A DNA stretch of 24,040 bases from a virus (Duplodnaviria; Heunggongvirae; Uroviricota; Caudoviricetes). Made by a program: the position numbers and the translations under genes. This document shows positions 1 to 19,103 of this stretch, in pieces. How positions within the stretch are numbered: position 1 is the stretch's first letter; the number at the start of each line of letters is the position of its first letter. The stretch spans positions 1 to 24,040 of the IMG/VR virus record IMGVR_UViG_2740892439_000001; one strand, written 5' to 3'. The notes beneath the pieces were generated by a model that saw only the letters and a program-made list of their open reading frames with translations, was not told where the DNA came from and ran no database searches.

Positions 1-22
1 CCACGCAATGCCTGAAATAACA

Positions 23-45
23 GCCTCGCACTAGCGGGGCTTTTT
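23..45 (+). terminator. Intrinsic terminator of an upstream plus-strand gene (outside window)
   Basis: Stem gcctcgc / gcggggc (7 bp, one G-U wobble), loop acta, followed by ttttt at 41-45. Confidence 0.5.
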
Positions 46-171
46 AATGCGTATCGTACACGCAAACCATCGAGAGTCTTTCAGTCGTGAGCCTGAGGAA
101 CGCCGTTAAAGGTGGCGACCTCTCTCGGGCGGCGTTCCTGTACGACAGGCTCACACCTAAAGGAAAACAGC

Positions 172-642
172 ATGAAAGTTATCAAGTATTGGAAAGTTCA
201 GCTTCTGCAGTTGTCTCAGCCCTCCAGCAATCTTTCCGGCATTATCAATGCCCGCACTCTGGTCGAAAGCCTGTTGTTTGAGGGGTACTCGAAAGATAAA
301 CCGAAAATTAACCTCGGTTCCGGAGTAAATATTGAGTTATTTACAGCACCCGATTCGCTGGAAACCCGTATCTTTCGTGACCGCCTCGTTGACAGTGTGC
401 GTTGCTTCCCGGTGTGTGAAGATGATGGCGACAAAAGTGAGGGGGTAGACATTACCATCCACCTTGAGCTCAGATTTCCAAATGCCGAGCCGTCATTGGT
501 GGCGCGGGCGCAGCAAAGGCGCCAGAAAAAATCCATGACCATGCCTGTATTAACTGCTTCCTTGGTCGCGGTCCGTGCCTTGGTGACTGCCACGTTGCCG
601 ACGTTAATAAGGCTCGCAGCTCCTCCTTCGAAGACGTGGTGA
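172..642 (+). CDS. Hypothetical protein; 3' end uncertain, a second frame is open 468-767 and looks more protein-like at its C-terminus (possible frameshift)
   Basis: ATG at 172 preceded by aaagga SD; N-terminal ~100 aa look like real protein (MKVIKYWKVQLL...). The track's ATG at 112 has no SD. Frame 0 is open from 468 to the tga at 765-767 with no ATG and ends ...KPVIKWLNENANPHTSVNIDATSAQLLTGEIGIHTEEFIKD. Confidence 0.4.
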   Translation: MKVIKYWKVQLLQLSQPSSNLSGIINARTLVESLLFEGYSKDKPKINLGSGVNIELFTAPDSLETRIFRDRLVDSVRCFPVCEDDGDKSEGVDITIHLELRFPNAEPSLVARAQQRRQKKSMTMPVLTASLVAVRALVTATLPTLIRLAAPPSKTW

Positions 643-779
643 AGCCCGTAATCAAATGGCTTAACGAAAACGCCAACCCTCATACATCAGTGAACATCGA
701 CGCAACCAGTGCTCAGCTGCTTACTGGTGAAATCGGCATTCACACGGAAGAGTTCATTAAGGACTGATCGGGCATTACA

Positions 780-801
780 GAGCCACTTCCAGAGGTGGCT
801 C
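780..801 (+). other. Hairpin (7-bp stem, 8-nt loop) in convergent intergenic region, no T-tract
   Basis: gagccac ttccagag gtggctc. Confidence 0.3.
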
Positions 802-854
802 GATAATGTCACAACGAGGTAAGGACTATGGCAAAACCGGACTGTGATTTCGTC

Positions 855-888
855 GAATAAGAATGGTGACCATAAAACAGAGTCACCA
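855..888 (-). terminator. Putative intrinsic terminator for the minus-strand gene ending at 893
   Basis: tggtgac / gtcacca 7-bp stem (864-888) with 11-nt loop; on the minus-strand transcript it is followed by a U-rich run (UUCUUAUUC). Confidence 0.4.
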
Positions 889-892
889 CAGA

Positions 893-1144
893 TTATTTAC
901 CCGCGCGCTTCGCGACCAGCTCATCTTCATTAACGCGATAACGCCAATATCGTTCAGGCTTAACCCAAACCACTTTATCACCGCTTACTTTGCGGAATTG
1001 GGTAATGACAGGTGTAGATAAAACAAGATTACCATCAGCATTTTCTTTCAGAAACTGCTCATTATCGAGTTTGACTAAATAATCAACTACGTCTTCCTGA
1101 TACAGGCAACCGTCATATTCTAACTGAGCCATCATCCACTTCAT
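893..1144 (-). CDS. Hypothetical small protein (83 aa from ATG 1144; the track's GTG at 1261 would give 122 aa but overlaps the upstream gene by 82 nt)
   Basis: Open frame with diverse composition (MKWMMAQLEYDGCLYQEDVVDYLVKLDNEQFLKENADGNLVLSTPVITQFRKVSGDKVVWVKPERYWRYRVNEDELVAKRAGK). Same strand and 35 nt downstream of the DUF2158-like gene. No family recognised. Confidence 0.45.
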   Translation of the reverse strand: MKWMMAQLEYDGCLYQEDVVDYLVKLDNEQFLKENADGNLVLSTPVITQFRKVSGDKVVWVKPERYWRYRVNEDELVAKRAGK

Positions 1145-1179
1145 CACGTCTGTAAGAGACAACTTGAGTGCGTTTGGGT

Positions 1180-1389
1180 TTACGGCTTTGGGTTGGTAGC
1201 AGTCAGTGATTCTTCTGGAAATCTGGCTCTTTCTTGCTTCCTTCCTGAAAACCACTGACACCAGTAATCACCAACAAAAACATCAAAGCTGTTTATGATT
1301 GGCTCCTGAACAGCCATCGCCGGGCCGCCTGAAACCAAATAAACAATGTCGCCGATTTTAAATTTAGGGGTACGTGGATTTTTTGACAT
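1180..1389 (-). CDS. Small protein resembling the DUF2158 / YodC-like family
   Basis: 69 aa, MSKNPRTPKFKIGDIVYLVSGGPAMAVQEP...GDYWCQWF...; the KxGDxVxLxSGGPxMxV core and C-terminal CxWF motif are recalled from memory as typical of DUF2158. aaggaag SD 5 nt upstream of the ATG on the minus strand. Confidence 0.6.
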   Translation of the reverse strand: MSKNPRTPKFKIGDIVYLVSGGPAMAVQEPIINSFDVFVGDYWCQWFSGRKQERARFPEESLTATNPKP

Positions 1390-1416
1390 AAAGCTTCCTT
1401 TTTAAGAGAGAGATAC

Positions 1417-1968
1417 ATGGCACTCACCGACAAACAAGAAATGTTCTGTCGCGAGTACCTCATCGATTTAAACGCTACGCAAGCGGCTATTCGGGCGGGG
1501 TACAGCGCAAAGACAGCTAACCGTACCGCATCCGAAAACCTGTCAAAACCTGACATCAAGTTAAGAATCGCCGAACTGAAAGCGCAACGCAATGATCTTG
1601 TTGGTATTAATGCAGAATATGTACTTAATCGCCTTATTGAAATCGACCAGATGGATGTGCTTGACATTCTCCTGCAAAACGGTGAGCTAAAACCCATCAA
1701 AGACTGGCCTAAGGTATGGCGCACAACGCTATCAGGAATGGATGTCGTGGAGATGGTATCCGCAGATAGCGCCGCACTTCTGAAGAAAATCAAATGGCCT
1801 GATAAGGTTAAAAACCTTGAGTTGCTTGGGCGTCATGTTTCTGTTCAGGCGTTTAAAGACAACGTCAAAAATGAAGTGACTGGCGCTGATGGAGGACCAG
1901 TCAGAACAGAAATTACCAACTTAACGCCGGAGCAGGCTGCAGAGGCGTATAGAAAAATGATGGGCTAA
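1417..1968 (+). CDS. terS: Terminase small subunit
   Basis: 183 aa, N-terminus [34 protein letters not shown] is the classic small-terminase helix-turn-helix start; sits immediately upstream of the large subunit (stop/start 1968/1971). Confidence 0.85.
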
Positions 1969-1970
1969 GT

Positions 1971-3559
1971 ATGCCGTTACCATTCCCCTTCGATTTTAAA
2001 CATCCTGATTACCAGATGGTTTTTGAATGGCGGATGGAACGCTTACAGCGCATTCGCCAGAATCCTGAAATATTGCCTGCACTAAAACAGTTTTACCGAA
2101 CCAATCCGGCTCAGTTCATCATCGACTGGGGCATGACAACGGACCCGCGTAATATTGATTATGGCCTGCCGGTGACCATTCCGTTTTTACTATTCCCTAA
2201 GCAGGAGGAGTGGATCCACTGGATTATGGAACGCTGGGGTAATCGGGAGAATGGTATTACCGAAAAATCCCGTGAAATGGGGCTCAGTTGGACCGCGATC
2301 GGACTGGCCTGCTCGCTTTGTCTCTTCAACAAAGAAATGGTTATCGGTTTCGGCTCCCGTAAAGAGGAATACGTCGACAGCACTGGTGACCCGAAAGCAT
2401 TGTTCTGGAAGGCGCGCAAGTTCGTGGAAACACTACCTGTAGAGTTTCGCGGTTCGTGGAGCGAGAAGAAGCACGCGCCATATATGCGTGTTGAGTTTCC
2501 TGAAACTGGTGCCGTTATCAAAGGCGAGGCTGGCGATAATATTGGTCGTGGTGACCGTACCACGCTTTATCTGGTTGATGAGGCTGCATTCCTTCAGCGT
2601 CCTCTGCTGATTGATGCGGCGTTGTCACAAACCACCCGTTGCCGTATCGACCTGAGTTCAGTTAACGGCATGGCTAACCCGTTCGCTCAGAAGCGTCATG
2701 GCGGGAAGATACCGGTATTCACATTCCACTGGCGGGATGATCCTCGCAAGGATGAAGAGTGGTATCGCAGGGAATGCGAGAAAATCGATAATCCGGTGGT
2801 GGTGGCGCAGGAACTTGACCTGAACTACAGCGCATCTGCGGAAGGCGTCCTGATCCCGTCCGACTGGGTACAGGCTGCCGTCGACGCGCATATCAAACTT
2901 GGTATTCAGCCAACGGGCAAGCGACTTGGCGCGATGGATGTCGCTGATGAAGGCAGGGACAAAAATGCCTTTTCCACCCGTCATGGCTTCCTCCTGGAAA
3001 ATGTGCGGGAATGGTCCGGTGTGGGCAGCGACATTTACCAGTCTGTTGAGAAGGTCTTCGGCTTTTGCGAACAGGACAACCTCGAAGAGTTTCGCTTCGA
3101 CGAGGACGGCCTGGGCGCTGGCGTTCGCGGAGATGCACGAGCTATCAACGAACTGCGTAACGCTGCGCGCCGACCGTCAATACTCGCCACGCCGTTTCGA
3201 GGTAGTGGCGCGGTATTTGATCCGGATGATGAAGCTGTTCGCGGGGACAACGGGCAGGCTGCACGTCTGAACAAGGACTTCTTCGCTAACGCCAAAGCCC
3301 AGAGCTGGTGGCGGTTACGTAAACTTTTTCAGAATACCTGGCGCGCGTGGTTGAAGGTATGGCTTACAACCCGGACGAAATCATCTCAATCAGCAGTAGC
3401 ATGGCACTCAAAGATAAACTCATCATCGAGCTTTCGCAGCCGACCTATTCCATTAATGGTGTGGGAAAAATCGTTATTGATAAACAGCCTGATGGAACCC
3501 GGTCGCCAAACCTTGCCGACTCGGTGATGATCAGCTACGCGCCAATGAATTCAGCCTGA
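1971..3559 (+). CDS. terL: Terminase large subunit, interrupted by an apparent 1-nt deletion near 3345-3350 (frame 0 to frame 2)
   Basis: 518-aa ORF 1971-3527 with a nucleotide-binding motif region ([11 protein letters not shown]) and nuclease-like C-terminal half. Its last ~60 aa are low-quality, while the overlapping ORF 3347-3559 (frame 2) encodes a typical terminase C-terminus ([16 protein letters not shown]...[16 protein letters not shown]). The frames join if one g is restored in gcgcgcgtgg. Confidence 0.8.
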
Positions 3560-3590
3560 ACATCTGGGAGCTGCTAGGGAGACAGGCCTG

Positions 3591-5060
3591 ATGGCACGAA
3601 ACAAGCAATCCTCTCAGCGAACGGCACAGGCCACCGCTGACGGCTACGAGAACTTCGTCGCCCGCGTTGGGATGCAGACGCCTAACCAGCATTCAGCATC
3701 GACCTACCGGGCGAACTTCACCAGCCGCAACCGCATGCTGGTGGAATGGTCATATCGCGGTTCGTGGGTTATCGGTGAAGCGGTCGACGCTATCCCGGAC
3801 GATATGACCCGAAAGGGCATTCGCATCACTTCGGAGATTGACGCCAAAGACCGTGGCACCCTCGAAGCGCAACTGGATGAGTTGCAGATCTGGGATGCGC
3901 TGAACGACGTGCTGAAATGGTCGCGTCTCTACGGCGGCGCGGTCGGCTTCATCATGATCGAGGGGCAAGCACCAATGACCCCGCTGCGACTCGAAACCAT
4001 TGGCGAGGGCAAGTTTAAGGGCATTCTCCCGCTCGACCGCTGGATGATTAACCCGGTGCTGACACGCCGCATTAAAGAGATGGGGCCGGACCTCGGCAAG
4101 CCTGAGTTTTACGACGTGGTGACCACCGCAACGGGCATTCCGGCCTGGCGCATCCATCACAGCCGCCTGATCCGCTTTGATGGCGTCACGCTGCCATTCC
4201 AGCAGAAGATGACCGAAAACGAATGGGGAATGTCGGTTGTAGAGCGTATCTGGGATCGGCTTACTGCGTTCGATAGCGCTACTGTCGGCGCGGCGCAGCT
4301 GGTCTATAAAGCGCATCTGCGTACCTATAGCGTGGAGAAGTTGCGCGAGCTTATCGCGCTTGGAGGCCCGGCGTTCGAAGCGTTGCTGAAGAACATCGAC
4401 CTGATCCGCCAGTTCCAGAGCAATGAAGGTATGACGCTCATGGACTCGCGGGATAAGTTCGAAACCCACCAGTACAGCTTTAGTGGTCTGGATGACATTC
4501 TTTCGCAGTTTGCTGAGCAGATCAGCGGTGCCGTTGGTATCCCGCTGGTACGCCTGTTCGGTCAATCCCCGAAAGGCTTCTCTACTGGTGATGCAGACCT
4601 CGCCAACTATTACGACCGGGTGAGCTCATTGCAGGAGCGCCGCTTACGGCTGCCGATGCGCCGGATACTGGACATTATGCACCGCTCGGAACTCGGAAAG
4701 CCGCTGCCGGACGATTTCACGTTTGAGTTTAACCCGCTATGGCAAATGTCAGACGTTGACCGATCAACGGTGGCCGTAAACACCACCAACGCGATCAGTA
4801 CCGCGCTGGGCGACGGATTGATGACGCGTAAGGCGGCGATGACCGACCTGCGCGAAAACTCTGACGTCACCGGCATCGGGGCATCCATTACCGACGAGGA
4901 TATCGAGAATGCCGAAGACGAAGCGCCGCCAGGCATCGGCGAACTTGGCGACAAACCGCCAGAGCCGCCAGGCGGAGATCCGATATCGAACGAGCCTACG
5001 GCAGATAGCGCGGGCGGTCGGGGATATCGTAAATGGTCGCTACGATGGTTCAAACGATAG
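3591..5060 (+). CDS. Portal protein
   Basis: 489 aa, sits between terminase and head-morphogenesis genes, acidic C-terminal tail; recalled as the DUF1073-type portal. The exact 3' end is uncertain because all three forward frames are open over 4843-5003. Confidence 0.75.
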   Translation: MARNKQSSQRTAQATADGYENFVARVGMQTPNQHSASTYRANFTSRNRMLVEWSYRGSWVIGEAVDAIPDDMTRKGIRITSEIDAKDRGTLEAQLDELQIWDALNDVLKWSRLYGGAVGFIMIEGQAPMTPLRLETIGEGKFKGILPLDRWMINPVLTRRIKEMGPDLGKPEFYDVVTTATGIPAWRIHHSRLIRFDGVTLPFQQKMTENEWGMSVVERIWDRLTAFDSATVGAAQLVYKAHLRTYSVEKLRELIALGGPAFEALLKNIDLIRQFQSNEGMTLMDSRDKFETHQYSFSGLDDILSQFAEQISGAVGIPLVRLFGQSPKGFSTGDADLANYYDRVSSLQERRLRLPMRRILDIMHRSELGKPLPDDFTFEFNPLWQMSDVDRSTVAVNTTNAISTALGDGLMTRKAAMTDLRENSDVTGIGASITDEDIENAEDEAPPGIGELGDKPPEPPGGDPISNEPTADSAGGRGYRKWSLRWFKR

Positions 5061-5682
5061 CGTCACCGAAATAATGGATGCGCTGGAGCGCTACAGCGAA
5101 ATCATCACCCCCTGGGCGACTAAGGTTGCTGAGAGCTTCACCGCCGACATTGCGCGCCAGAATGAAAAGCAGTGGCGTCAGCACAGCCGGAACATCAGCG
5201 CAGAACTACGCAACATGGTCGACCGCGCCCCGGTAGGCCAGGTGATGAAATCCATCGTCGCCGAGCAAATTAAGTACATCAAATCTCTGCCTCTTGAGGC
5301 CGCCGATCGGGTGTATGACATTCAGAACAAGGCCATCGAGGCTGTAGTAACTGGTGGCCGCGCTGAGCCATTCGCGAAAGAGATAGCTGCTTCCGGTGAC
5401 GTGTCACGCTCACGAGCGAACCTTATCGCCCGGACTGAGCTTGGGCGCGCAACCGGTGCATTGGATCAGGCGCGTGCGCTGTCAATCGGCTCGAATGGTT
5501 ATATCTGGCGTACAGCCGAAGATGGCGACGTCCGGCATTCTCATCGAGAGATGGAAGGGAAGTTTGTCGAATGGGGCCGACCTCCAACGCTTGACGGCAT
5601 GACCGGTCACGCTGGCGAGCTCCCGAACTGCCGCTGTTACAAAGAAATCGTCTTCCCCAACCCTCATTCTTATCTCGCCTGA
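4909..5682 (+). CDS. Head morphogenesis protein (Mu F / SPP1 gp7-like minor head protein)
   Basis: 257 aa; basic N-terminus MPKTKRRQASANL...; conserved position directly after the portal; C-terminal region ...GYIWRTAEDGDVRHSHREMEGKF...LPNCRCY is typical of this family. 152-nt overlap with the portal ORF. Confidence 0.7.
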   Translation: MPKTKRRQASANLATNRQSRQAEIRYRTSLRQIARAVGDIVNGRYDGSNDSVTEIMDALERYSEIITPWATKVAESFTADIARQNEKQWRQHSRNISAELRNMVDRAPVGQVMKSIVAEQIKYIKSLPLEAADRVYDIQNKAIEAVVTGGRAEPFAKEIAASGDVSRSRANLIARTELGRATGALDQARALSIGSNGYIWRTAEDGDVRHSHREMEGKFVEWGRPPTLDGMTGHAGELPNCRCYKEIVFPNPHSYLA

Positions 5683-5696
5683 ATCGCAGGTAAACC

Positions 5697-6929
5697 ATGA
5701 AATATTTTTTCAATACCCGGCTGGGGGAAACCCGTTATCAGCTGGCTGACGGCTCGCTGCTGTGCAAAGACGTGCCGATAGGTCGAACGGGTAAGCAGCT
5801 TTACGGCGCTGCCGATCTGCCAAACCTCAAACCCGACAAGCTCGGCGAGATAGTCGTAACGCGCTCTCCTGATCAGGTATTCCATCCGGCCACGCTCGCC
5901 TCATTCGAAGGGATGAGCATCACGATCCTGCATCCTGAAGATGAAAACGGGAATGTGCGGCTGGTCAACCCCGAGAACTGGAAAGAGCTTGCGGTCGGGC
6001 ATCTTCAGAACGTTCGGCGCGGGACTGGTGATCAGTCTGATTTGATGCTGGCTGACCTTATCGTCAAAGACGAAAGCGCCATTCAGCTGATCGAAGATGG
6101 TCTGCGCGAAGTGTCGTGCGGCTATGACGCTGAGTACGAGCAGACCGAACCCGGAAAAGCCGAGCAGGTCGATATTACCGGAAACCATGTGGCTCTTGTC
6201 CCTAAAGGCAGAGCCGGAAATCGTTGTGCAATTGGAGACAGAGACACAATGGCAAATCAAAAGAAAAGCTGGTGGACCCGCATGCGCACGGCCATCAAAA
6301 CGGGTGATGCTGACACCATGAACGAACTGCTGGACTCTGCGCCAGCGGCGGTAACGGGCGATGAAGGGGATCTGCCGAGCGGCGTTAACCTCAACATTAA
6401 TCTTTCACCGCAACAACCATTGCCGGACAAAAAGCCGGAAATGGGCGGAGAGCCAACCGGCGACGGCGAGGACGATATCAAAACCTTGCTCAAAGCCCTG
6501 CTGGCTAAGCTGGAAGGTACTGCAACGGGCGATAACGACGATAAGCCTGACGGCAAAGATAACAAAGACCCTACCGGCGACGGTGAGGACGACGAAGAGG
6601 AAACCACGATTACCGGTGACGCTGCTTATCGTGCCGAAGTTATCGTTCCGGGTATCGATCTGAGCCGTAAGGTGAAACCGACCGCGTTCAAACGTGATGT
6701 GCTGTCCGCCGCTGACAAAACACTGGTTCGCCAGGTTGTCGGTGATGCAGATATCCGCAAATTGCCCAAGCAATCGGTAGATATGGCGTTTAACGCCGTG
6801 TCAGAGATTGCCAAAGGGCGAAACACCCGCAGCACCACGGGCGATGCACAACGTCCAAATATGGGCATGACCAGCATCGCTTCCCTGAACAAACAAAACG
6901 CCGACTTCTGGTCTAACCGCAAAGGATAA
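5697..6929 (+). CDS. Scaffold / prohead protease-like protein (DUF2213-like) with an acidic low-complexity linker
   Basis: 410 aa; position between morphogenesis and capsid genes; Asp/Glu/Gly-rich central region with a repeated PTGDGEDD motif. Confidence 0.55.
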   Translation: MKYFFNTRLGETRYQLADGSLLCKDVPIGRTGKQLYGAADLPNLKPDKLGEIVVTRSPDQVFHPATLASFEGMSITILHPEDENGNVRLVNPENWKELAVGHLQNVRRGTGDQSDLMLADLIVKDESAIQLIEDGLREVSCGYDAEYEQTEPGKAEQVDITGNHVALVPKGRAGNRCAIGDRDTMANQKKSWWTRMRTAIKTGDADTMNELLDSAPAAVTGDEGDLPSGVNLNINLSPQQPLPDKKPEMGGEPTGDGEDDIKTLLKALLAKLEGTATGDNDDKPDGKDNKDPTGDGEDDEEETTITGDAAYRAEVIVPGIDLSRKVKPTAFKRDVLSAADKTLVRQVVGDADIRKLPKQSVDMAFNAVSEIAKGRNTRSTTGDAQRPNMGMTSIASLNKQNADFWSNRKG

Positions 6930-6933
6930 TCCA

Positions 6934-7437
6934 ATGACTGCATATCTGTACCGGATGCCTGTTGGCATTGCCGGGACTATCTCTCGCCCGCAGGACTTAA
7001 CCGTCGAACCGGTGATCCTTAAATCCGCTAACGCCTTCGCTGCCTATGGTCTGGCTGGCAAATATGACGCTGACGGCTTTTTCGTGCCGCTGGCGGACGG
7101 TGACACCGCCGACAAGGTGAAGGGGATCTACGTTCGTCCGTATCCGACCACATCGCAGCCAGACATGGTTCGCCAGGTGGGGACGGATAAGAACTTCCCG
7201 GGTGACGCCATGAAGCGTGGCTACATGACCGTTAATCTCGGTTCTGATTTTGATGCCAGCACCATCAAAAAAGGCGACCCGGTATACGTTGTCGTCTCCA
7301 CTGATGAATCCATCAAAGTGCCGCTGGGCGGCTTCATGTCCACGTCCGTCAGTGGCAAAAACGTGGCGCTGACCAACGCCGAATTCACAGGGGCCGGTGA
7401 CGCTAACGGCAATGCAGAAATCTCCTGGAAGATTTAA
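6934..7437 (+). CDS. Capsid-associated cement/decoration-like protein
   Basis: 167 aa ORF immediately upstream of the major capsid gene, Gly/Thr/Val-rich beta-type composition; family assignment is tentative. Confidence 0.5.
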   Translation: MTAYLYRMPVGIAGTISRPQDLTVEPVILKSANAFAAYGLAGKYDADGFFVPLADGDTADKVKGIYVRPYPTTSQPDMVRQVGTDKNFPGDAMKRGYMTVNLGSDFDASTIKKGDPVYVVVSTDESIKVPLGGFMSTSVSGKNVALTNAEFTGAGDANGNAEISWKI

Positions 7438-7448
7438 GGAACAGACGA

Positions 7449-8390
7449 ATGATTACTTTTGATCAGGCAACCGTTGATAGCTCTGGTGCCTTTCTCATCG
7501 GGGAGCTGGAGCGACTCGACCAGACGCTGAACCTGCCGCTGGTGGGTTACACCTGGACCCGCGATATTCAGCTGCGTGAAGACGTTTCTATCGCAGATGA
7601 CATTTCCAGCTGGACTAACACCAGTTTTGGCGCTGCTGGTACTGGCGCAAATCCGAACGGTAAAAACTGGGTAGGCAAAGACTCCACTGCTATTGCTGGC
7701 GTGAATGTTGATATCGGCAAAGACGGCAATCCGCTGAACCTCTGGGGCATGGAACTGGGCTGGACCGTTGTAGAGCTGGCAGCAGCTCAGCAGGTAGGTC
7801 GCCCGATTGATACCCAGAAGTACGACGGGATGCAGCTCAAATGGCAGATGGACAACGACGAGCAGGTTTACATTGGCGATGATGCGCTCGGCCTGAAAGG
7901 GCTGGCAAACCTTGTCGGTGTGACGCTGAACAATGCGCCGAAGACCTGGGCGAATTCCACCAACGACGAGATTCTCGATAGCGTGAACAGCATTCTGTCG
8001 AATGCCTGGGCAGCATCCGGTTATTCCGTCGTGCCTTCTGATCTGCGCATTCCGCCAGAGCAGTATTCACTGCTGGCGAGCCGTAAGGTTTCCGAAGCGG
8101 GTAACCAGTCGCTGCTGACCTATCTGGCCGTGAACACTATCGCTTTCCACCAGAACGGCGTTCCGCTGGAAATCAAAGCGGTTAAATGGCTGAAAGGGCG
8201 CGGGGTTGGCGGTAAAGACCGTATGGTCGCCTACACCAACGACAAGAAATACGTGCGCTATCCGCTGGTGCCGTTGCAGAGCGTTCCTGTCCAGTATCGC
8301 GGTCTGTACCAGATTGCGACCTACTACGGCAAGCTCGGTGCGGTTGAGCCAGTGTACAAAGAAACCCTGTCCTACGTGGACGGTATCTGA
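7449..8390 (+). CDS. Major capsid protein
   Basis: 313 aa; position after scaffold and cement genes; followed by a strong hairpin; composition typical of DUF2184-type capsid proteins. Confidence 0.7.
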   Translation: MITFDQATVDSSGAFLIGELERLDQTLNLPLVGYTWTRDIQLREDVSIADDISSWTNTSFGAAGTGANPNGKNWVGKDSTAIAGVNVDIGKDGNPLNLWGMELGWTVVELAAAQQVGRPIDTQKYDGMQLKWQMDNDEQVYIGDDALGLKGLANLVGVTLNNAPKTWANSTNDEILDSVNSILSNAWAASGYSVVPSDLRIPPEQYSLLASRKVSEAGNQSLLTYLAVNTIAFHQNGVPLEIKAVKWLKGRGVGGKDRMVAYTNDKKYVRYPLVPLQSVPVQYRGLYQIATYYGKLGAVEPVYKETLSYVDGI

Positions 8391-8400
8391 TAACCAGAAC

Positions 8401-8416
8401 GGCCCCGAAAGGGGCC
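8401..8416 (+). other. GC hairpin (ggcccc-gaaa-ggggcc) directly after the major capsid gene; putative attenuator or RNA stability element
   Basis: Perfect 6-bp G/C stem with a GAAA tetraloop 11 nt after the capsid stop; no downstream U-tract; the SD (aggaaa) and ATG of the next gene follow. Confidence 0.45.
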
Positions 8417-8431
8417 AGAAGGAAACTTGAA

Positions 8432-8821
8432 ATGGCGAAAGAAAAGCTGGTTACCATCCATGTTCACACCCCGTTTACGCTGACGCTCGGCGATCAGTCA
8501 AAACAGGAGTTTGGCCGGGGACGGCATAACGTACCGGAAGAGGTTGCGTCGCACTGGTTCACCCAGGCGCACTCTGAGCTTTCCGAAAGCGTGATTAGCG
8601 ACACCGATGATCTGCAACCCATTATCGACAGCCTGCAAGCACAGATTGCCGACAAAGATAAGCAGATTGTCGATAAAGATCAGCTGATTGCCGATCTGAA
8701 AGAAGCGCTGCTCAAGCTGCAAGAGCAGAACGACAGCCTGCAAGCGCAGATTGCTGCCGCCCAGACTGGCGGTAATGGGGCGAAAGATGCCAAAGAATCA
8801 AAGCCTGCCAACAGTAAGTGA
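8432..8821 (+). CDS. Hypothetical coiled-coil protein
   Basis: 129 aa; aggaaa SD; C-terminal heptad-like region with a repeated DSLQAQIA motif. Confidence 0.55.
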
Positions 8822-9194
8822 TTTTCGGCGCGACTTTCCACAGTTTGCTGACCCTGCCAAATATCCCGAAGCACAAATCCAGTTTCGTCTGAATCTGGCT
8901 GATGTGCTGCTGAGCGAAAACGTCACCGGCAAAGAGTTGTTTCCGTACTTTGTCGAGTTGTTCGTGGCTCACTACATGACGCTCTGGGCGGCAGATAGCC
9001 GGGCAATGCTCGTCGGCGGCCCGGGTGGCTCAACCAATGGTGTTCAGTCCTCCAAGTCCGTTGACAAGGTAAGCGTCAGCTATGACACCAGCGCGACGCT
9101 AAACCCTGACGCAGGCTTCTGGAATAACACCCGATATGGCGCTGAATTTTATCAGCTGATCACGATGTTCGGTGCGGGCGGTCGCCAGCTATGA
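8787..9194 (+). CDS. Head-tail connector-like protein (DUF4054-like)
   Basis: Likely start at ATG 8787 ([33 protein letters not shown]...); the track ORF begins upstream at 8751. Confidence 0.55.
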
Positions 9195-9778
9195 GTTTCA
9201 AAAGTGGTGTAACAACGAGGGTTGATAACGCTCAGGCCATTCTGGATGCGCTCCGGTCGCTAACCAAAAAGGATGTGCTGGTGGGCATCCCGGAAGAAGA
9301 CAGCGAGCGTGAGGATGTTCCGTTTGGTAATGCGGGGATCGGCTACGTCAATGAATACGGCTCACCGGCGCAAAATATCCCCCCACGCCCGCACCTGATC
9401 CCCGGCGTTAAATCGGTAGAGGAACAGACAGTGCCGCAGCTTAAAGCAGCGGCGCAGGCTGCGCTTGATGGTAATGCGGCGGGTGCAGAAAGAGCGCTAA
9501 ACCGCGCCGGAACGCTGGCCGCCAATGGCGTCAGGCGTTACATGACTATTACCGGCTTTACACCGCTTGCTGATAGCACCGTTGAAGCCCGCGCGCGTCG
9601 AGGTCGCAAAGGGGCGAAAGCTGAGTTAGCACGCAGATCGGCAGACGGAAAGCTTAATGCTATCAACCCAGATTCTGGTCAATTGATAAGCAATGAGAAT
9701 GTAAGGCCGTTGATTGATACCGGACAATACCGCAGAGCCATTACCCATGTTGTGAGGGATAAAGATGCCGACTCTTGA
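9191..9778 (+). CDS. Virion morphogenesis / head-tail joining protein
   Basis: 195 aa; ATGA stop-start overlap with the preceding gene; C-terminal [15 protein letters not shown] resembles the conserved end of HK97 gp10-like proteins (from memory). Confidence 0.5.
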
Positions 9779-10154
9779 TGTAACAGACGTGCTTTTTGAC
9801 CCCGATTTTTGCGACTTCAACCTGTGGGTAACGCGTCGCGCGCAAACGGTGGACGATGACGGGATCGGCAGCGACAGCGAAGTTAAAACGCAGTTTGCCG
9901 GGGTTGTTACTGTTGACCGCTCCCTGGAAAACCGCCGCATGCAGGCCGGGCAGGTTATCAGCGGCGCGATTCTCATCGTGACAACTGAGCGGCTGACGCA
10001 GGGACAGACTGGTCGTGATGCCGATATCGTGACGTATCAGGGCCGTGATTATCGTGTGACCTTCGTCGACCCGTATACAGCTTATGGGGCCGGATTCGTT
10101 CAGGCGCATTGTGAGTTGATGCCGTTTGATGGGGGAACTCCGGTTGAGCAATAA
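9765..10154 (+). CDS. Head-tail joining / tail completion-like protein
   Basis: 129 aa ORF coupled to neighbours in the structural module. Confidence 0.5.
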   Translation: MPTLDVTDVLFDPDFCDFNLWVTRRAQTVDDDGIGSDSEVKTQFAGVVTVDRSLENRRMQAGQVISGAILIVTTERLTQGQTGRDADIVTYQGRDYRVTFVDPYTAYGAGFVQAHCELMPFDGGTPVEQ

Positions 10155-10692
10155 CACCAGTACAGAGCGCGGATGGTTAATACCAACCAGTGGCGATCTG
10201 GATTATGACGAAGCGCTCGACAGGCTGTTAAGCCAGTGGATGCGTAACGTTTCCGGTCTGTCTGCCGGGATGGTTCGCCCGCGCTGGCAGAAAGAGCAGC
10301 CGCCACTGCTACCGGCTGAAACGAACTGGTGTGCGTTTGGGGTTATCGGATGGTCAGGTGATGACAGTCCGGCATTCACCAGACAGACCGATGATGGCTC
10401 TAAGCTCTGGCGGCATGAAACGATTGAGTGTATGGCTTCGTTTTATGGTCCGGCGGGGATGGTGTATGCGTCCCGGTTTCGTGACGGTATATCTGTACCG
10501 CAGAACAATGCAGCACTGAATGCGCTGGGGCTGTCTCTTGGCGATTACACAGGTCTGACCCCCTTCCCTGAACTTATTAATCAGCAATGGGTCCGCCGCT
10601 ACGATATGACGGTGCGCCTGCGCCGGAAGGTTGTGCGCGAGTACGGTATTAAATCGCTGGTGGAAGCACCAGTCATCTTTTTCGGAGATTAA
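10126..10692 (+). CDS. Tail-associated structural protein (hypothetical)
   Basis: 188 aa ORF immediately upstream of the sheath gene; start uncertain. Confidence 0.45.
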   Translation: MMGELRLSNNTSTERGWLIPTSGDLDYDEALDRLLSQWMRNVSGLSAGMVRPRWQKEQPPLLPAETNWCAFGVIGWSGDDSPAFTRQTDDGSKLWRHETIECMASFYGPAGMVYASRFRDGISVPQNNAALNALGLSLGDYTGLTPFPELINQQWVRRYDMTVRLRRKVVREYGIKSLVEAPVIFFGD

Positions 10693-10695
10693 GCT

Positions 10696-11841
10696 ATGGC
10701 ACAGGGCTTGCCTGTATCAAACGTTGTTAATGTTGATGTGATCATGTCGCCGCGTGCAGCATCAGGGCGAAATTTTGGTGCATTACTCATTCTCGGCCCG
10801 TCCACAATCATTCCGGTAAGTGAGCGCATTCGCCGTTATTCTGCCGCGGAAGATATTGGAAAAGATTTTGGCGTGGAATCACCAGAATATAAGGCTGCGC
10901 AGGTGTTTTTCTCACAATCACCGAAACCTCAGGAGGTTTTTGTTGGTCGTTGGGTGAAAACGAAGGGTGACAGCGAACAGGCCACGCCTGAGACGCTGGA
11001 GCAGGCTGTGAATGCCATGCTCGATTATACTTCATGGTATGGGCTGGGGATTGCAGACGATGAAGATATTCCGGATGCAGACTGGCTGAAAGTGGCTGCG
11101 GCGATCGAATCCTCTTCTGTAAGCCGTATTCTGGCGATTACGACAAGCGATGAGAAATGCCTGCAGACTGCATCCAGCGATGATTTGGCATCAAAACTGA
11201 AAACCGCCGGATATTCACGCAGTTTTATTCAGTATTCATCGGGTAATAAATACGCTGCGTTATCTGCATTTGGCCGGGTATTCACGGTTAATTTCAATGG
11301 CAGTAATACCGCGATTACGCTCAAGTTTAAGCAGGAGCCGGGTGTCGGGTATGAAACACTGACAGTCAGCCAGGCATCGGCACTTGATGCAAAAAACTGC
11401 AATGTATTCGTGTACTACCAGAATGATACGGCTATCCTCCAGCAGGGAGTGATGGCTAACGGCGATTTCTTTGATGAACGCCACGGCCTGGACTGGTTAC
11501 AGAATTATGTGCAGACCAACCTCTATAACCTGCTTTATACCAGCACCACGAAAGTTCCCCAGACTGAAGCCGGTATTACCCGACTGTTATCAAATGTTGA
11601 AAAATCACTGGATCAGGCCGTTCAGAATGGACTGATTGCTCCGGGCGTATGGAACGGGGGCGACCTTGGTCAGTTGTCATCAGGTGACACACTGCCCAAA
11701 GGTTATTACGTATACGCCCAGCCGCTGGATGAACAGGCACAATCAGAACGTGAAGCCCGTAAGGCTCCGGTGATTCAGGCTGCAATAAAACTTGCAGGCG
11801 CGGTTCATTACGCTGACGTACAGATTAACGTTGTTCGCTAA
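10696..11841 (+). CDS. Tail sheath protein (DUF3383-like)
   Basis: 381 aa; placed directly before the tube and chaperone genes as in contractile tails. Confidence 0.65.
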
Positions 11842-11851
11842 GGGGAAGTGA

Positions 11852-12292
11852 ATGTCTACCTATTCTTTTATGGATGTCACTGCGACGCTGACCGGCCCGA
11901 CCGGTTCGATTGACCTCGGGTACGGTTCTGCAAGTTCTGAAGAGGGGATTGTGGTTGCGATGGGCGGTCCTAAAAACACCATGACCATCGGTGCTGATGG
12001 TGAAGTGATGCACAGCCTCCATGCAGATAAAAGCGGGACGATTACCGTTAACCTTCTGAAGACATCACCGACAAATAAAAAATTGTCGCTGGCGTATAAC
12101 GCACAGAGCCAGTCTTCTGCCACATGGGGGAATAACGTTATCGTGATCCGCAACAAGGTCAGCGGCGACATCATCACGGCACGCAGTGTTGCGTTCCAGA
12201 AACAACCGGATAATGCCAACGCTAAAACCGGTAATACGATGCCGTGGGTGTTTGACTGCGGCAAGATTGACCAGGTTCTCGGGGAGTTTTAA
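11852..12292 (+). CDS. Tail tube protein (DUF3277-like)
   Basis: 146 aa between sheath and chaperone. Confidence 0.6.
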   Translation: MSTYSFMDVTATLTGPTGSIDLGYGSASSEEGIVVAMGGPKNTMTIGADGEVMHSLHADKSGTITVNLLKTSPTNKKLSLAYNAQSQSSATWGNNVIVIRNKVSGDIITARSVAFQKQPDNANAKTGNTMPWVFDCGKIDQVLGEF

Positions 12293-12295
12293 TAC

Positions 12296-12748
12296 ATGGA
12301 ATTCGAAATCAAAGGCGTGAAATATCGCGTGGCAAAACTCAGCGTTTTTGACCAGCTGAAAGTGACCCGCAAACTTCTGCCGGTACTGGCGGGAATGATG
12401 TCAGATTTCGGGAGCATTCGCTCCCGTTTGCCTGCTGACGGCAAAATCGACACCGTGAAATTCGAGCAGTTAAAACCGGTGTTTGAAACCATGCTCCCGC
12501 GTATCGCTGAGGAACTGTCTTCCCTGACCGAAGATGACACCAGTGCGATTATTCATCCCTGTCTTGCGGTGGTATCGCGGCGTCATATGGACGGATGGGT
12601 TCCGGTATTTACCCAGGGCGAACTGATGTTTGATGATATTGACTTGCTGGTCATGCTGCATCTGGTGGCGCGGGTGGTCGCCGATTCGCTGGGAAATTTT
12701 TTGCCTACACCCCTTACCAGCACGACGCAGAGCCTGCAACAGGGCTGA
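12296..12748 (+). CDS. Tail assembly chaperone (gpG-like, zero-frame product)
   Basis: 150 aa; immediately upstream of the tape measure gene; contains the slippery site near its 3' end. Confidence 0.7.
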   Translation: MEFEIKGVKYRVAKLSVFDQLKVTRKLLPVLAGMMSDFGSIRSRLPADGKIDTVKFEQLKPVFETMLPRIAEELSSLTEDDTSAIIHPCLAVVSRRHMDGWVPVFTQGELMFDDIDLLVMLHLVARVVADSLGNFLPTPLTSTTQSLQQG

Positions 12749-12936
12749 CGTTTAACAGCCTGCCGGACGGGCTGTCTTACCTTCTCAATCCGGTTGACGC
12801 CGGGTTAATTCCTTATACAGCACTTAAAGATGGCTCTGTCGATTTGTACGACATTGCTCTCTTGAATGACCATCTGGCGGTAAAAGCGGATAACCAGCGG
12901 CGCATTGAGAAATGGAGAGAGGATAATGAACGCTGA
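12296..12936 (+). CDS. Tail assembly chaperone frameshift product (gpGT-like), made by -1 ribosomal frameshift at 12691-12703
   Basis: After a -1 slip, the frame is open for 79 codons from 12697 to the tga at 12934-12936, exactly filling the apparent 178-nt gap before the tape measure ATG at 12926. Confidence 0.65.
12691..12703 (+). promoter_or_regulatory. Programmed -1 frameshift slippery sequence G_GGA_AAT followed by T_TTT_TTG
   Basis: In the chaperone frame the codons are ctG GGA AAT TTT TTG; both overlapping heptamers fit the X_XXY_YYZ pattern. Confidence 0.6.
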
Positions 12937-14911
12937 AACTATTAAAGATTTCCTCGTCTCGCTTGGCTTCAGTGTGGATGATGCTGGAGCAAAAAAATTC
13001 GGTTCTGTCCTCGCCGGTACAACTGCAAATGTCATCAAAATGGGACTGGCCGTTGAAGGAGCTGCACTGTCCGTGGTGGCCTTTACGGCTAAGATTGCCT
13101 CCGGCCTGGATAATCTTTACTGGGCGTCACAGCGCACTGGCGCGACAGTACAGGGAATTCAGTCTATTGGCTATGCGGTTTCGCAGGTTGGCGGCAGCGT
13201 GGACGCTGCGCGATCTTCTCTGGAAAGTCTCTCCCGGTTTATTCGTAACAATCCCGGGGCAGAGGGATTTCTGAATCGCCTGGGGGTACAGACACGGGAT
13301 GCCAGCGGCAACATGCGCGACATGGCCGCTATCTTTACGGGTGTCGGACAGAAGCTCAGCAGCATGCCGTATTACCGGGCTAACCAGTATGCGCAGATGC
13401 TGGGCATTGACGAAAATACCTCATGCGATGCGCCGGGGTGTGGGTGATTTCTCCGGGCAGTACAGCGCAATGGCGAAAGCTATCGGCTTCAATGCTGACG
13501 AGGCGGCCAGAAGCTCCAACAAATTCATGACCTCCCTGCGCGAGTTCGGCGCGATGGCAGGCATGGCCCGTGACAAAATCGGCTCTAATCTTGCTGGTGG
13601 TCTGGCGGGTTCGCTGGACACACTGCGCCGCCACATCCTCGATAACTTCCCGCGCATCGAGCAGACCCTGACGAAAGCCATAAAAGGCATTCTGGCGCTC
13701 GGAGACATCATCGGGCGGCTGTTCTTCAGGCTAATTGAGGGAACATCCAGCCTTATCACCTGGTGGCAATCGCTGGATAAGCAAACGCGGGAGCTCATCT
13801 CGCTGTTTGGCGCGCTGACGATTGCGCTGCGCATTCTGAACAGTACGTTCTGGATGTCGCCGATTGGCCTCATTACCGCGCTGGCGGCGGGGATTGCCCT
13901 TCTGTGGGAGGACTATCAGACCTGGAAGGAAGGCGGCGACAGCCTGATTGACTGGGGCAAGTGGAAGCCGGAGGTCGATGCCGCGCTGAAGATGGTTCGT
14001 GGCCTGAAAGGGTCTGTTAATGAACTGGCGAAAGCGCTGGCGAAACTGCTCAATATTGACCCCAAATCATGGTCCCTGAAGTGGGATTTCAGCAACTTCA
14101 TCGACCAGATGGGCGAATTCAGCAAAATGCTGAACATGATCGCCGACCTGCTCAACGCTATCAAAGATGGCCGCTGGGCTGATGCCGTCAGCATCGGCAA
14201 ACAGATACTTAATCAGGCAGCGAAAATCCGTCAGCGATGCCGATGGTTACAGACAGCGCTAACAGTACTGCCGACTGGATTAAAGAGCACTGGGGATTCG
14301 ATCCCCGCAGTGTGGGCCGGACGGTACGCGGCTGGTTTGGTGATGATGAGCCGGAACAATATGCACAGGCTACGAAACGAGGAGAACGGAATAACAATCC
14401 GGGAAACCTTAATTTTGCTGGTCAGGCAGGGGCTTCTCTTGAACGCCCGGGCGGGCGATTTGCCAGATTTGAAACTGCTTTTGATGGATTACGGGCTCTT
14501 GCTCGTCAGTTAATGCTGTACGCCGGACGGGGAATAAACAGTGTGGAGAAAATTATCTCTACCTGGGCACCTGCGTCTGATAATAACAACACAACTGCGT
14601 ATATCAGGGCTGTATCGCAACGACTGGGAGTGGATCCCCGGGCTGCCCTGAATATGAGCGATCCGCAAACCATGTCAGCATTGATGAGCAGCATTATCCA
14701 GCATGAAAATGGAAGAAATATCTATTCTCGAGAGCTGATTAATAAGGCTGCCGTGGCGGGAATTAGTGGCAAAATGACAGAGGTTAACCAGCAAAATACT
14801 TACCACATTTACGGTGGCGGAGATCCGCACGCTGTCGGTAATGAGGTTGCACGTCGGCAACAGTCTGCAAATGCTCAGGTCATGCGAAGTAATCAGGTGA
14901 GGGTGGGTTAG
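12926..14911 (+). CDS. Tail tape measure protein, split over three frames by two apparent 1-nt indels (near 13433-13438 and 14213-14237)
   Basis: ORFs 12926-13447 (frame 2), about 13437-14513 (frame 0) and 14237-14911 (frame 2) are contiguous. The middle part has hydrophobic segments and a coiled-coil-like feel typical of tape measure proteins. The junctions give continuous protein if one g is removed from ccgggg and one base is added near 14230. Confidence 0.75.
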
Positions 14912-15498
14912 TGGATATTCTCTCTACACTTTTTCATCAGCAGAGCAGAAAAATAGGAATGATTGTTCCCAGTGTTGTTATTTCAGAGAAGCATACAGAT
15001 ATGCTTGAAATAACAGAGCATCCGGTAGAGGTCGGGGCCGCTGTCGCTGATCATGCCTATAAAAAACCGTCAGAAGTGGTGATGGAGGTTGGTTTCGCCG
15101 GTGGCGGCGCATTGCTGGATTTTGCCAGTAATCTGACGGCTACCAGCCTGCTCGGCCTGAGTCCTCAGCAGACGTATCAGGAGCTACTGGATCTGCAGGA
15201 AAGCCGTATCCCCTTCGATGTGGTAACCGGTAAACGACTGTACAGCAACATGTTGATCCGGGCGCTGGAAGTGACGACGGACAAGACAACCGAAAACGTC
15301 CTGTCCGCCGTCCTCACCCTGAGGGAGGTCCTTATCTCCCGGACACAGCAGATTACCGTCGCGGATAAAACCAACATGAAGGAAGGGGCCAGCACGTCGG
15401 CGGTACAGAACAGCGGCAACAAAACCACAAAGCCTCCAGATACTTCACTGCTGAAAAGCATCACGGGTAACGTGGCGTCATTACTGGGGGGCGGCTAA
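14911..15498 (+). CDS. Tail/baseplate assembly protein (hypothetical)
   Basis: 195 aa; GTG start overlaps the tape measure stop (TAGTG). Confidence 0.5.
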   Translation: MDILSTLFHQQSRKIGMIVPSVVISEKHTDMLEITEHPVEVGAAVADHAYKKPSEVVMEVGFAGGGALLDFASNLTATSLLGLSPQQTYQELLDLQESRIPFDVVTGKRLYSNMLIRALEVTTDKTTENVLSAVLTLREVLISRTQQITVADKTNMKEGASTSAVQNSGNKTTKPPDTSLLKSITGNVASLLGGG

Positions 15499-15800
15499 TG
15501 ACAATTCAGGAAATTCCGCTGACAGCGGACAACCAGCAGTTCAGCATCGTCTTAGGTGGTGTTACCTGGCGGATTAGCATCATATGGCGCGATCTTTACT
15601 GGATTATGGACCTGCAGAACGACAGAGGGGAGCCGGTAATCTCCGGTATTCCTCTCGTCACTGGCGCTGATCTGCTGGCGCAGTACGCCTGTATGGGGCT
15701 TGGTTTTAAGCTGGTGGTGGTCTGCGATGACAACACACAGGATTATCCCTCGAAAACTGATCTGGGTGGCCGCAGTCATTTACTGGTATCAACGGAGTAA
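15498..15800 (+). CDS. Small tail/baseplate protein (hypothetical)
   Basis: 100 aa; TAATG coupling. Confidence 0.5.
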   Translation: MTIQEIPLTADNQQFSIVLGGVTWRISIIWRDLYWIMDLQNDRGEPVISGIPLVTGADLLAQYACMGLGFKLVVVCDDNTQDYPSKTDLGGRSHLLVSTE

Positions 15801-15802
15801 GC

Positions 15803-16867
15803 ATGTCACAGAACTGGATGAGACATTTCGAGCTGCAGCTTGTGGACGGGAACGGTCAGGGAATTGAGCTAAGTGATTTCAAAGTCACCTTTACGATCGA
15901 CTGGTTCAACATCAGCAGCGCGTCCCGGGTAGGGACTATCAAAATTTATAACCTCTCGGCAGATACTGTGAACCGAATCACCGGGAAGGAATTTTCGAAA
16001 GTGCGGCTGATTGCCGGTTACGACGGTATCGCGCCGGAGGTGGCGGCAAGCGACGTCGGGACCGTGCGCGAAGTCGACGCGGCAGATGTGGGCCAGAGTG
16101 ATGGCCGCAACTACGGGCTGATTTTCAGCGGAGAAATTCGCTACTCGGTCACAGGAAAAGACAGCCCTATTGATTCCTATGTCCTGATTCAGGCAGCAGA
16201 TACGGATCTGGCATTTGCCACCAGTATAACCTCACAGACGCTGGCTGCCGGTTACACGGTCGCTGATGTGAACCGTGCGCTGATGAAAGACTTCGAAGCC
16301 AAAGGCGCGACCGAAGGCCTGACGCCTGAAATGCCTGCTACTGTATTCCCCCGGGGGCGGGTGCTCTTTGGCATGACGCGGCATCTTATGGATAACGTAG
16401 CCGGGCAATGTGGCGCAACATGGCAATTCGTGGACGGTCAACGCCAGATGGTGGCGAATAACGAATATGTTCATGAAGCGATTGTGCTCAACAGCGCCAC
16501 CGGGCTTATCGGCATGCCGCAGCAGACTATCGGCAACGGCGTAAACGTCCGCGCGCTTATTAATCCGAACATCCGGGTTAATGGGCTCATTCAACTGGAT
16601 CAGGCTTCCGTATATCGCACCGCGTTGTCGAACAACGATATTGCGATGGCTGGTGGGCAGATCACCGACCAGAACACGGACGGAAATATCACGCTAAGCG
16701 GCACCACAGCACAACCTGCCAGCATCGCAACGGATGGCGTTTATATTGTGCGCGGGATTATGTACACTGGCGATACAAGGGGCCAGGCGTGGTACATGGA
16801 TATGATGTGCGAAGCGCGTGGCGCGGCGGATCTTCAAAGTCAAGGAGCAATGAATCGGTGGGGATAA
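15803..16867 (+). CDS. Baseplate hub-like protein
   Basis: 354 aa; position between the tape-measure-distal genes and the central spike. Confidence 0.5.
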   Translation: MSQNWMRHFELQLVDGNGQGIELSDFKVTFTIDWFNISSASRVGTIKIYNLSADTVNRITGKEFSKVRLIAGYDGIAPEVAASDVGTVREVDAADVGQSDGRNYGLIFSGEIRYSVTGKDSPIDSYVLIQAADTDLAFATSITSQTLAAGYTVADVNRALMKDFEAKGATEGLTPEMPATVFPRGRVLFGMTRHLMDNVAGQCGATWQFVDGQRQMVANNEYVHEAIVLNSATGLIGMPQQTIGNGVNVRALINPNIRVNGLIQLDQASVYRTALSNNDIAMAGGQITDQNTDGNITLSGTTAQPASIATDGVYIVRGIMYTGDTRGQAWYMDMMCEARGAADLQSQGAMNRWG

Positions 16868-16869
16868 GA

Positions 16870-17400
16870 TTGAATAAGAAAGCCATTTTTATTGCAATAA
16901 GTTTACTTGTTCCGATGTCGGGATTAGCCGCTCCTGGGAAGTATGAAAAAATGGCTGTTGATTTAATGGATCAGCAAAAGTTTACGCAGTGGCAACATTA
17001 CGCCTCTGCTACTCCTTTTTTCGCTATGAATGGTCGCAGATTCGCCATGACCATTGATGATTTCGCGGATATAGTCAGCAACTCCTTTCAAGAATGCGAA
17101 GATCTGGATGCCTACACCAATCGGAAAGGAACTACGGATGATTGTAAGTCCTATGTTTACAAAGGCATAAAGGAGTGGGTAAACCTCTCTCAAGATAAGT
17201 CTGTTAGCGATACAGCATGGAAAATGGGCCAGCGCTATGCTTCAACACACGTAATCCTATTGCCCATAAAAACGCATGGGATTTCAATGGGATGGCGGCC
17301 GGTATTCGCGTTGCTAAATCTCAAGGTTATTAAGTCATGGATGCGCCGAAAATCATCGGATCTTTCCCGTGTAAAAAAGTGGCTGGGCGATGATTTTTGA
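16870..17400 (+). CDS. Accessory secreted protein with N-terminal signal peptide (function unknown)
   Basis: TTG start with a ggtgggga SD 6 nt upstream; N-terminus (M)NKKAIFIAISLLVPMSGLAAPG is a typical Sec signal; mature part has two Cys; about 33 percent GC in the first 60 nt versus about 70 percent in sampled structural-gene sequence. Confidence 0.55.
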   Translation: MNKKAIFIAISLLVPMSGLAAPGKYEKMAVDLMDQQKFTQWQHYASATPFFAMNGRRFAMTIDDFADIVSNSFQECEDLDAYTNRKGTTDDCKSYVYKGIKEWVNLSQDKSVSDTAWKMGQRYASTHVILLPIKTHGISMGWRPVFALLNLKVIKSWMRRKSSDLSRVKKWLGDDF

Positions 17401-18348: not shown

Positions 18349-19103
18349 ATGGCAGTATCTGACCAGACCCGCAGCGGCGACCTTGCCGAAACATTCAAAT
18401 CTGAACGGGAAACAACAAAGAACCAGATCCGAGTCGCTTTGCCTGGCATCGTCCAGTCATTCGATCCTGACGCTGTGACGGCGGTTGTGCAGCTTCTATC
18501 CGTTCGGTTGAAACGGATAACGACGGCAATCGCGTTACCAAAAATTACCCGCTGCTGGTGGATGTGCCGGTGGTATTCCCGCGCGGCGGAGGCTGTACGT
18601 TGACTTTTCCGGTAAAAGCTGGGGATGAGTGTCTTGTCGTTTTTGCCGATCGTTGTATTGATTTCTGGTGGCAGAGCGGCGGGATACAGGAGACGATTGA
18701 TAACAGAATGCATGATTTATCGGATGCGTTCTGTATCGTCGGTCCGCAGTCTCTGGCGCAGAAAATCAGCGGAATCAGCACCAGCGCCGCGCAACTGCGT
18801 ACTGATGATGGCGCTGCGTTTGTGGAAGTGGCCGCAGGCCATAACATCACGGTTAAAACCCCCGGCGCGCTGACGGCGACAGCAGAAGGAGGAACCACGA
18901 TCACATCACCCACCATCACGCTAAACGGCAACGTGACAATAAACGGGAATCTCTCTCAGGGGATGGGCGAAAGCGGCGGCACCGCGACGATGCTTGGCCC
19001 TGTCACGGTGACTAACGATGTAAAAGCTGGTGGTAAGAGCCTGATGACGCACACGCACGGCGGAGTACAGACCGGCGGCGGTAACACAGGAGCGCCTAAC
19101 TGA
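18349..19103 (+). CDS. Baseplate central spike protein (gp138 / Mu gp45 / P2 gpV-like), interrupted by an apparent 1-nt indel near 18493-18497
   Basis: N-terminal ...IRVALPGIVQSFDPDAVTAVVQ (frame 1) and YPLLVDVPVVFPRGGGCTLTFPVKAGDECLVVFADRCIDFWW (frame 0) together form one OB-fold spike domain; Gly/Thr-rich beta-helix-like C-terminus; ggag SD before the ATG at 18349. Confidence 0.7.

Follow-up and report, generated by a model that had tools for sequence, protein, structure and literature searches.

A frame-disrupted large terminase gene in a prophage contig of Escherichia coli RCE01 is most probably a sequencing and assembly artefact

The terminase locus as deposited

The window, that is the whole stretch of 24,040 nucleotides that was analysed, carries a phage packaging module in which the gene for the large terminase subunit (terL) is distributed over three reading frames. 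As deposited, terL is an open reading frame of 518 amino acids (1971..3527, + strand), the 3' part of which is overlapped by an open reading frame in the next frame (3347..3559, + strand), both taken from the list of open reading frames of the window. The features of the locus are the following.

1417..1968, + strand: small terminase subunit (TerS) gene, 183 amino acids, intact, directly upstream of terL (Pfam PF03592, Terminase_2, E=7e-40)
1971..3346, + strand: terL segment 1, codons 1-458 and bases 1-2 of codon 459 (Ala), read in window frame 0 (list of open reading frames)
3345..3346, + strand: frameshift site 1, one C where all relatives have CC (alignment)
3347..3556, + strand: terL segment 2, codons 460-529 in window frame 2; covers the SPNLAD motif and the last part of the RNase H-like nuclease domain
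3555..3556, + strand: frameshift site 2, CC where relatives have CCC, followed by a premature TGA at 3557-3559
3557..3591, + strand: terL segment 3, rest of Leu530 to Ala540 and the native TGA at 3589-3591, window frame 1 (repaired open reading frame)
3591..5060, + strand: portal protein gene, 489 amino acids, intact, DUF1073/Phage_portal_3 (Pfam PF06381)

The homologous frame of terL is left at codon 459 (window 3345-3346), where relatives read GCGCGCCGTGG and the window reads GCGCGCGTGG; the absent base is a C beside 3346 in the codon for Ala459, seen in a five-way alignment as GCGCGC[C]GTGG with the bracketed C absent from the window. Equally, at the boundary of codons 529 and 530, CAGCCCTGA in relatives is changed to CAGCCTGA in the window (3555-3556; CAG[C]CCTGA in the five-way alignment, with the bracketed C absent), a deletion that cuts off the last 11 TerL codons, which are kept in every relative. 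With both bases restored, terL comprises 1,623 nt and encodes 540 amino acids, and its native stop codon TGA (3589-3591) shares its A with the ATG of the portal gene at 3591 in a TGATG overlap.

The disruption of the terL frame reported at this place by the first-pass annotation is borne out, both open reading frames being present. Its proposal to join the two frames by restoration of one base was right in the resulting protein, of which residues 296-523, spanning the junction, align unbroken to nuclease domains from solved terminase structures; the restored base, given as a G, is a C according to the relatives, which leaves the encoded protein the same. The C-terminus at 3559, which had been considered credible, is not the native end, as the frameshift at site 2 was overlooked and TerL runs on for 11 codons.

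Identity of the terminase and its relatives

The position of terL directly after TerS (1417-1968) and before the portal gene (from 3591) is the gene context of a large terminase. The repaired TerL matches the terminase large subunit family PHROG_2 over residues 33-533 (E=1.2e-32), and its residues 296-523 match the 'Large terminase protein' of PDB 8dkr_B (E=2e-33) and Sf6 gp2 in PDB 4idh (E=4e-27); judged by these scores, the match of the nuclease domain to solved structures is far beyond chance. Searches of TerL with Pfam and NCBIfam profiles matched no terminase model. Within this C-terminal RNase H-like nuclease domain, SPNLADS in the repaired TerL is aligned to SPNLADA of Sf6 gp2 and provides the conserved acidic residue close to the C-terminus; the aspartate of this motif would be a catalytic metal ligand in Sf6 gp2. 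As the SPNLAD motif lies downstream of 3346, it is absent from the deposited frame. In the N-terminal part, the translation of segment 1 contains LYLVDE, a Walker B-like motif of the hhhhDE type, with the PDB matches reaching residues 249-523 only, and a candidate deviant P-loop, EKSREMGLS, presumably resembles KSARVGYS of lambda gpA. We infer that the real gene is an intact terL whose product has a putative ATPase at its N-terminus and an RNase H-like nuclease at its C-terminus.

At the DNA level, 1971-3600 of the window shares 97-98% identity with prophages of 352 RefSeq complete E. coli genomes and likewise with the Escherichia phages vB_EcoM-606R2/689R2; for Salmonella phage SEN34 (Brunovirus) and for Hafnia phage yong1, the identity is 83-87%. 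Annotated terL genes show 97-98% DNA identity to the repaired gene. The order of the small terminase gene and terL matches that of relatives, and where the annotation of relatives was inspected, terL is one gene of 1,623 nt and 540 amino acids that ends on the base with which the portal gene begins. The same TerS-TerL-portal order and the same overlap of stop and start codon are found in SEN34-like (Brunovirus) temperate myoviruses and in E. coli prophages; their TerL of 540 amino acids is encoded in one frame, whereas terL of the deposited window is split over three frames. In SEN34 and yong1, the DNA encoding the 11-residue tail lost from the deposited gene is conserved. The nuclease domain of the repaired TerL is like that of Shigella phage Sf6 gp2 (PDB 4idh, 5c12) and PDB 8dkr. 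Alignment to homologous terL genes, a check put forward by the first-pass annotation, shows the extra base and one uninterrupted frame in the relatives, and a terminase ending with the frame-0 sequence, named there as counter-evidence, was seen in 0 of more than 130 homologous loci. Furthermore, the repaired TerL is catalogued as an exact protein on 218 contigs and the exact portal protein on 619 contigs, while for the frameshifted 518-amino acid TerL no exact protein is catalogued. The prophage is most likely an intact, ordinary SEN34-like myovirus with a standard TerS-TerL-portal module and is probably functional.

Source of the window and comparison with a second assembly

The window is 100% identical to the whole contig JUDV01000059.1 (assembly GCA_001630855.1) of E. 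coli RCE01. This strain is an isolate from a Crohn's disease patient with the draft genome JUDV00000000 (Rakitina et al., 2017, PMC5517970), which was sequenced on the Ion Torrent PGM with a 318 chip and the 200-bp kit and assembled with MIRA 4.0; artificial frameshifts were warned of by the genome authors themselves (PMC5517970). In the NCBI record JUDV01000059.1, there is no protein for terL or for the tape-measure gene.

The 167-amino acid cement protein of the window (6934-7437) was found on only two contigs, JUDV01000059.1 and the Logan contig SRR1599274_50. Compared with 1-17437 and 8350-21355 of the window, the Logan contig (SRR1599274) shows 0 substitutions, and all differences are 1-bp gaps. 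With 0 substitutions over ~21 kb and nearly shared contig ends, SRR1599274 would be a run of RCE01. The deposited and the Logan assembly are based on the same technology and probably on the same reads, and are independent as assemblers, not as data.

Six deletions are found only in the deposited contig (919, 3346, 13421, 13425, 14216, 18493) and four only in the Logan contig (5516, 8328, 14074, 14176), and three are common to both assemblies as compared with relatives (469, 3555, 17240). At 3346 the C is present in the Logan assembly, while at 3555 the C is absent there too, and gene calling on the Logan assembly yields a TerL of 529 amino acids. Since the two assemblies agree on all substituted positions and disagree at the length of ten C/G runs, run lengths are not reliably determined by the data, and read error is indicated.

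Single-base deletions throughout the window

Compared with the closest prophages, the window contains nine uncompensated single-base deletions (~469, 919, 3346, 3555, 13421, 13425, 14216, 17240, 18493), at each of which a C or G is lost from a run of two or three. Two of the deletions lie in terL and three in the tape-measure gene, while the spike gene and three small genes carry one each; the density of false frameshifts would be about one per 2.7 kb of contig. Outside of terL, the following features are concerned.

469, + strand: deletion CC to C, splits a hypothetical gene of 198 amino acids (172..767); in the Logan assembly too
919, - strand: deletion GG to G, alters the C-terminus of a DUF6953 gene (893-1261, minus strand); private to the deposited contig
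12905..14911, + strand: tape-measure/lytic transglycosylase gene in three frames (open reading frames 12905-13447, 13299-14513 and 14237-14911)
~13421 (CCC to CC), 13425 (GG to G) and 14216 (GGG to GG): deletions in the tape-measure gene, all private to the deposited contig
17240, + strand: loss of one C from CC, close to the 3' end of a small gene of the baseplate region (16858-17400); in the Logan assembly too
18349..19103, + strand: membrane-puncturing spike gene, 251 amino acids when repaired, split by a deletion at ~18493 (CC to C) that is private to the deposited contig

Site 469 was identified by comparison with a 99.6% identical relative (L017); the repaired 198-amino acid protein is exactly catalogued on 35 contigs, and the 156-amino acid frameshifted product of this gene is found only in the two RCE01 assemblies. 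The DUF6953 product comprises 79 amino acids in the deposit versus 82 in the Logan assembly and in relatives. The repaired tape measure of 662 amino acids is exactly catalogued on 20 contigs; in the same gene, the Logan assembly carries two other deletions, at window 14074 and 14176. The repaired spike protein is the protein encoded by the Logan assembly and is exactly catalogued on 1 contig. Equally, the 180-amino acid frameshifted product of the baseplate-region gene is restricted to the RCE01 assemblies. All structural genes regain the lengths seen in relatives once the bases are re-inserted.

Over 9707-22854 of the window, prophages of several other isolates are 99.4-99.6% identical, with exactly five gaps, all of which are deletions of the window. 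Within this part, 16700-18600 is identical to the loci L139, L141, L144 and L145 save for the gaps at 17240 and 18493. A natural variant at a mosaic boundary was considered for the 17240 gap and rejected, as four isolates are identical over 1.9 kb save for 17240 and 18493. In the window genes compared with relatives, no nonsense mutations, IS elements, insertions or larger deletions were found.

Error signature of the deletions

Each of the 13 indels across both assemblies is the loss of a C or G from a 2-3-base run; insertions or A/T events are not among them, and the longer runs of the window (A8, A7, T6, G6, C6) are without indel. As a run census places ~21% of the window bases in C/G runs of 2-3, the chance that 13 of 13 random positions fall into such runs is, by our own arithmetic, ~1e-9, before deletions are even required.

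High-frequency indels (HFIs) of the PGM have been described to occur about once per kb of reference, mainly as C/G deletions, with 82% of the strand-asymmetric HFIs located in homopolymers of length 2-3, and to yield frameshifts in assemblies (Bragg et al., 2013, PMC3623719). The single C/G deletions in short homopolymers, the frequency of about one per 1-3 kb, the inconsistency between analyses, the false frameshifts in assemblies and the platform are the same for these HFIs and the genome of the window, although errors were measured in reads against known references by Bragg et al. (2013, PMC3623719), whereas here the footprint in two consensus assemblies is observed. Accordingly, two marks of an Ion Torrent artefact, the platform and a spectrum of C/G deletions in 2-3-nt runs with rare substitutions, are found in the window. 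A further mark, the lack of reproduction in a second assembly, is seen at 3346 and five other sites, and at 3555, 469 and 17240 the deletion is reproduced.

Rarity of the deletion alleles

A search with a degenerate 31-nt pattern for the deletion allele of site 1 gave 0 matches in GTDB species representatives, IMG/VR and JGI metagenomes, while the intact allele gave at least 120 matches in IMG/VR. Neither was the deletion allele found in the 290 RefSeq complete E. coli genomes containing the site, in which the best match of 98.6% corresponds to one gap, nor in the 132 loci compared. For the deletion allele of site 2, the corresponding pattern search matched one IMG/VR contig, L018. At site 2, the deletion allele is found among the loci compared only in the window (L158), its Logan twin (L157) and the contig L018, and the intact allele in 141 loci.

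L018 (IMGVR_UViG_2877274432_000001, locus 7483-12535) represents a related phage and was rejected as independent support for the allele of site 2, as it shows 52 gaps over 5 kb versus the window and is itself error-ridden. Its gaps are almost all single G/C losses in short runs, and L018 seems to be a further assembly full of errors that has entered a public viral collection.

Origin of the frame break

In the light of the error spectrum, the two assemblies and the relatives, the break in the terL frame is with a probability of about 0.88 a sequencing and assembly artefact, not a mutation. As to its course, PGM data are known for HFIs, mostly with loss of a C or G and often in homopolymers of 2-3 bases, which persist in consensus sequences as false frameshifts; this signature is seen nine times in the 24 kb of the window, of which twice within terL (beside 3346 and at 3555-3556). 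The underlying TerL would be intact with 540 amino acids and a stop codon overlapping the start of the portal gene. The two breaks differ in how they can be addressed. The error at 3346 is shown directly because the independent assembly is discordant there, and with near certainty this break is a consensus error of the deposited assembly. The deletion at 3555 is carried by both assemblies, so that its status derives from the signature shared with the other sites, according to which it is very probably an error. The first-pass annotation had left defect and error open; the evidence firmly favours error, and the alternative of a prophage that cannot package DNA is unsupported.

A mixed case, with an assembly error at 3346 and a genuine recent mutation of CCC to CC at 3555-3556 leading to a TerL of 529 amino acids, is improbable. 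It draws on the presence of the 3555 deletion in both assemblies of the strain, with a 529-amino acid TerL delivered by the Logan gene caller, and on the conservation of the lost tail in SEN34 and yong1, according to which its loss could matter; large terminases of other phages touch the portal with their C-terminal tails. At 3555, 469 and 17240, where both assemblies of the strain are without the intact base, a genuine recent mutation has a low probability. On the other hand, site 3555 bears the signature of the ten indels at which the two assemblies disagree, and as HFIs are by definition present in most reads, both assemblers would inherit the deletion. The mixed case equally demands that 469 and 17240 are real, and thus three recent frameshifts in the absence of any substitution or nonsense mutation versus near-identical relatives, and against 141 intact loci the 3555 deletion occurs elsewhere only in the error-ridden L018. 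Were it real, TerL would be without its conserved 11-residue tail, the TGATG coupling to the portal gene would be lost and the prophage could be attenuated or packaging-defective; a natural tail-less terminase would then exist in an otherwise intact SEN34-like prophage of a Crohn's disease-associated E. coli.

That all nine frameshifts are genuine, with the window representing a multiply decayed cryptic prophage incapable of DNA packaging and tail building, is very improbable. The deposited sequence does read as decayed, the missing NCBI proteins for terL and the tape measure are consistent with a pseudogene call, and a frameshifted terL superficially resembles early decay as in genuinely defective (cryptic) prophages. 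The Logan assembly, however, restores six of the nine sites and adds four different ones, and the source paper itself warns of artificial frameshifts (PMC5517970). Furthermore, genuine prophage decay displays mixed lesions such as nonsense mutations, IS insertions, large deletions and substitutions, whereas in the window only single-base deletions in C/G runs are seen and nonsense mutations, insertions, larger deletions, IS elements and accompanying substitutions are all missing. Long runs, at which slippage in nature is favoured, are without indel in the window. Lesions reproducible across sequencing together with other signs of decay, by which a cryptic prophage would be recognized, were not observed. 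Programmed recoding, in which full-length TerL would arise through slippage of the ribosome or RNA polymerase on the C/G runs, has a practically negligible probability: the downstream frames still encode homologous TerL, and nothing else favours recoding. All relatives have the extra C and encode TerL without a change of frame, and the deletion alleles are conserved nowhere; two separate +1 events would be required in terL and three in the tape-measure gene, at sites that are neither slippery heptamers nor long homopolymers. The relatives and the two assemblies effectively exclude programmed recoding as well as wholesale decay of the prophage. Mutagen-induced frameshifts were considered as well and rejected on comparative and assembly evidence.

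Consequences for the use of the draft genomes

Rather than a feature of phage biology, the terL break is almost certainly an artefact of a documented kind that the sequencing platform left in a draft genome. The contig of RCE01, and presumably the whole RCE01 to RCE11 Ion Torrent draft set, would contain about one false frameshift per 2.5-3 kb, and calls of pseudogenes and of a 'defective prophage' as well as comparisons of gene content based on the RCE01-RCE11 assemblies would be inflated. In scans for frame-disrupted genes, the sequencing platform and the indel signature need to be checked first.

Mosaic structure of the prophage and observations on public records

The window shows mosaic joints at 9620-9707 and 22854-24040. 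The head module (~1989-9620) is at most ~96-97% identical to any relative found, and for the tail module (9707-22854), 99.5% identity is reached with a different set of isolates. The contig ends within an open reading frame similar to tail fibres and SGNH hydrolases (from 22547), which is almost unmatched in RefSeq complete E. coli genomes. A variable cargo site is located between the baseplate-region gene and the spike gene (window 17400-18345 versus 19306-20565 in L005 and 14277-15479 in L138), with a 190-amino acid DUF2335 protein in the window and in L139-L145, and a different 190-amino acid protein together with a YafO-family toxin in other relatives.

In the public records, the locus L153 (CP042645.1, GCA_007998125.1) contains Mu F-like, cement and tape-measure genes without a called product (~9378-11754 and 17197-19454), with gene coordinates shifted by one base versus sibling loci, which suggests indel errors there too. 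Equally, the 489-amino acid portal protein and the 540-amino acid TerL, although unrelated, share a '90% identity' cluster (P0001/P0016; 6,945 members), in which fused or mis-called open reading frames probably bridge the overlapping terL and portal genes.
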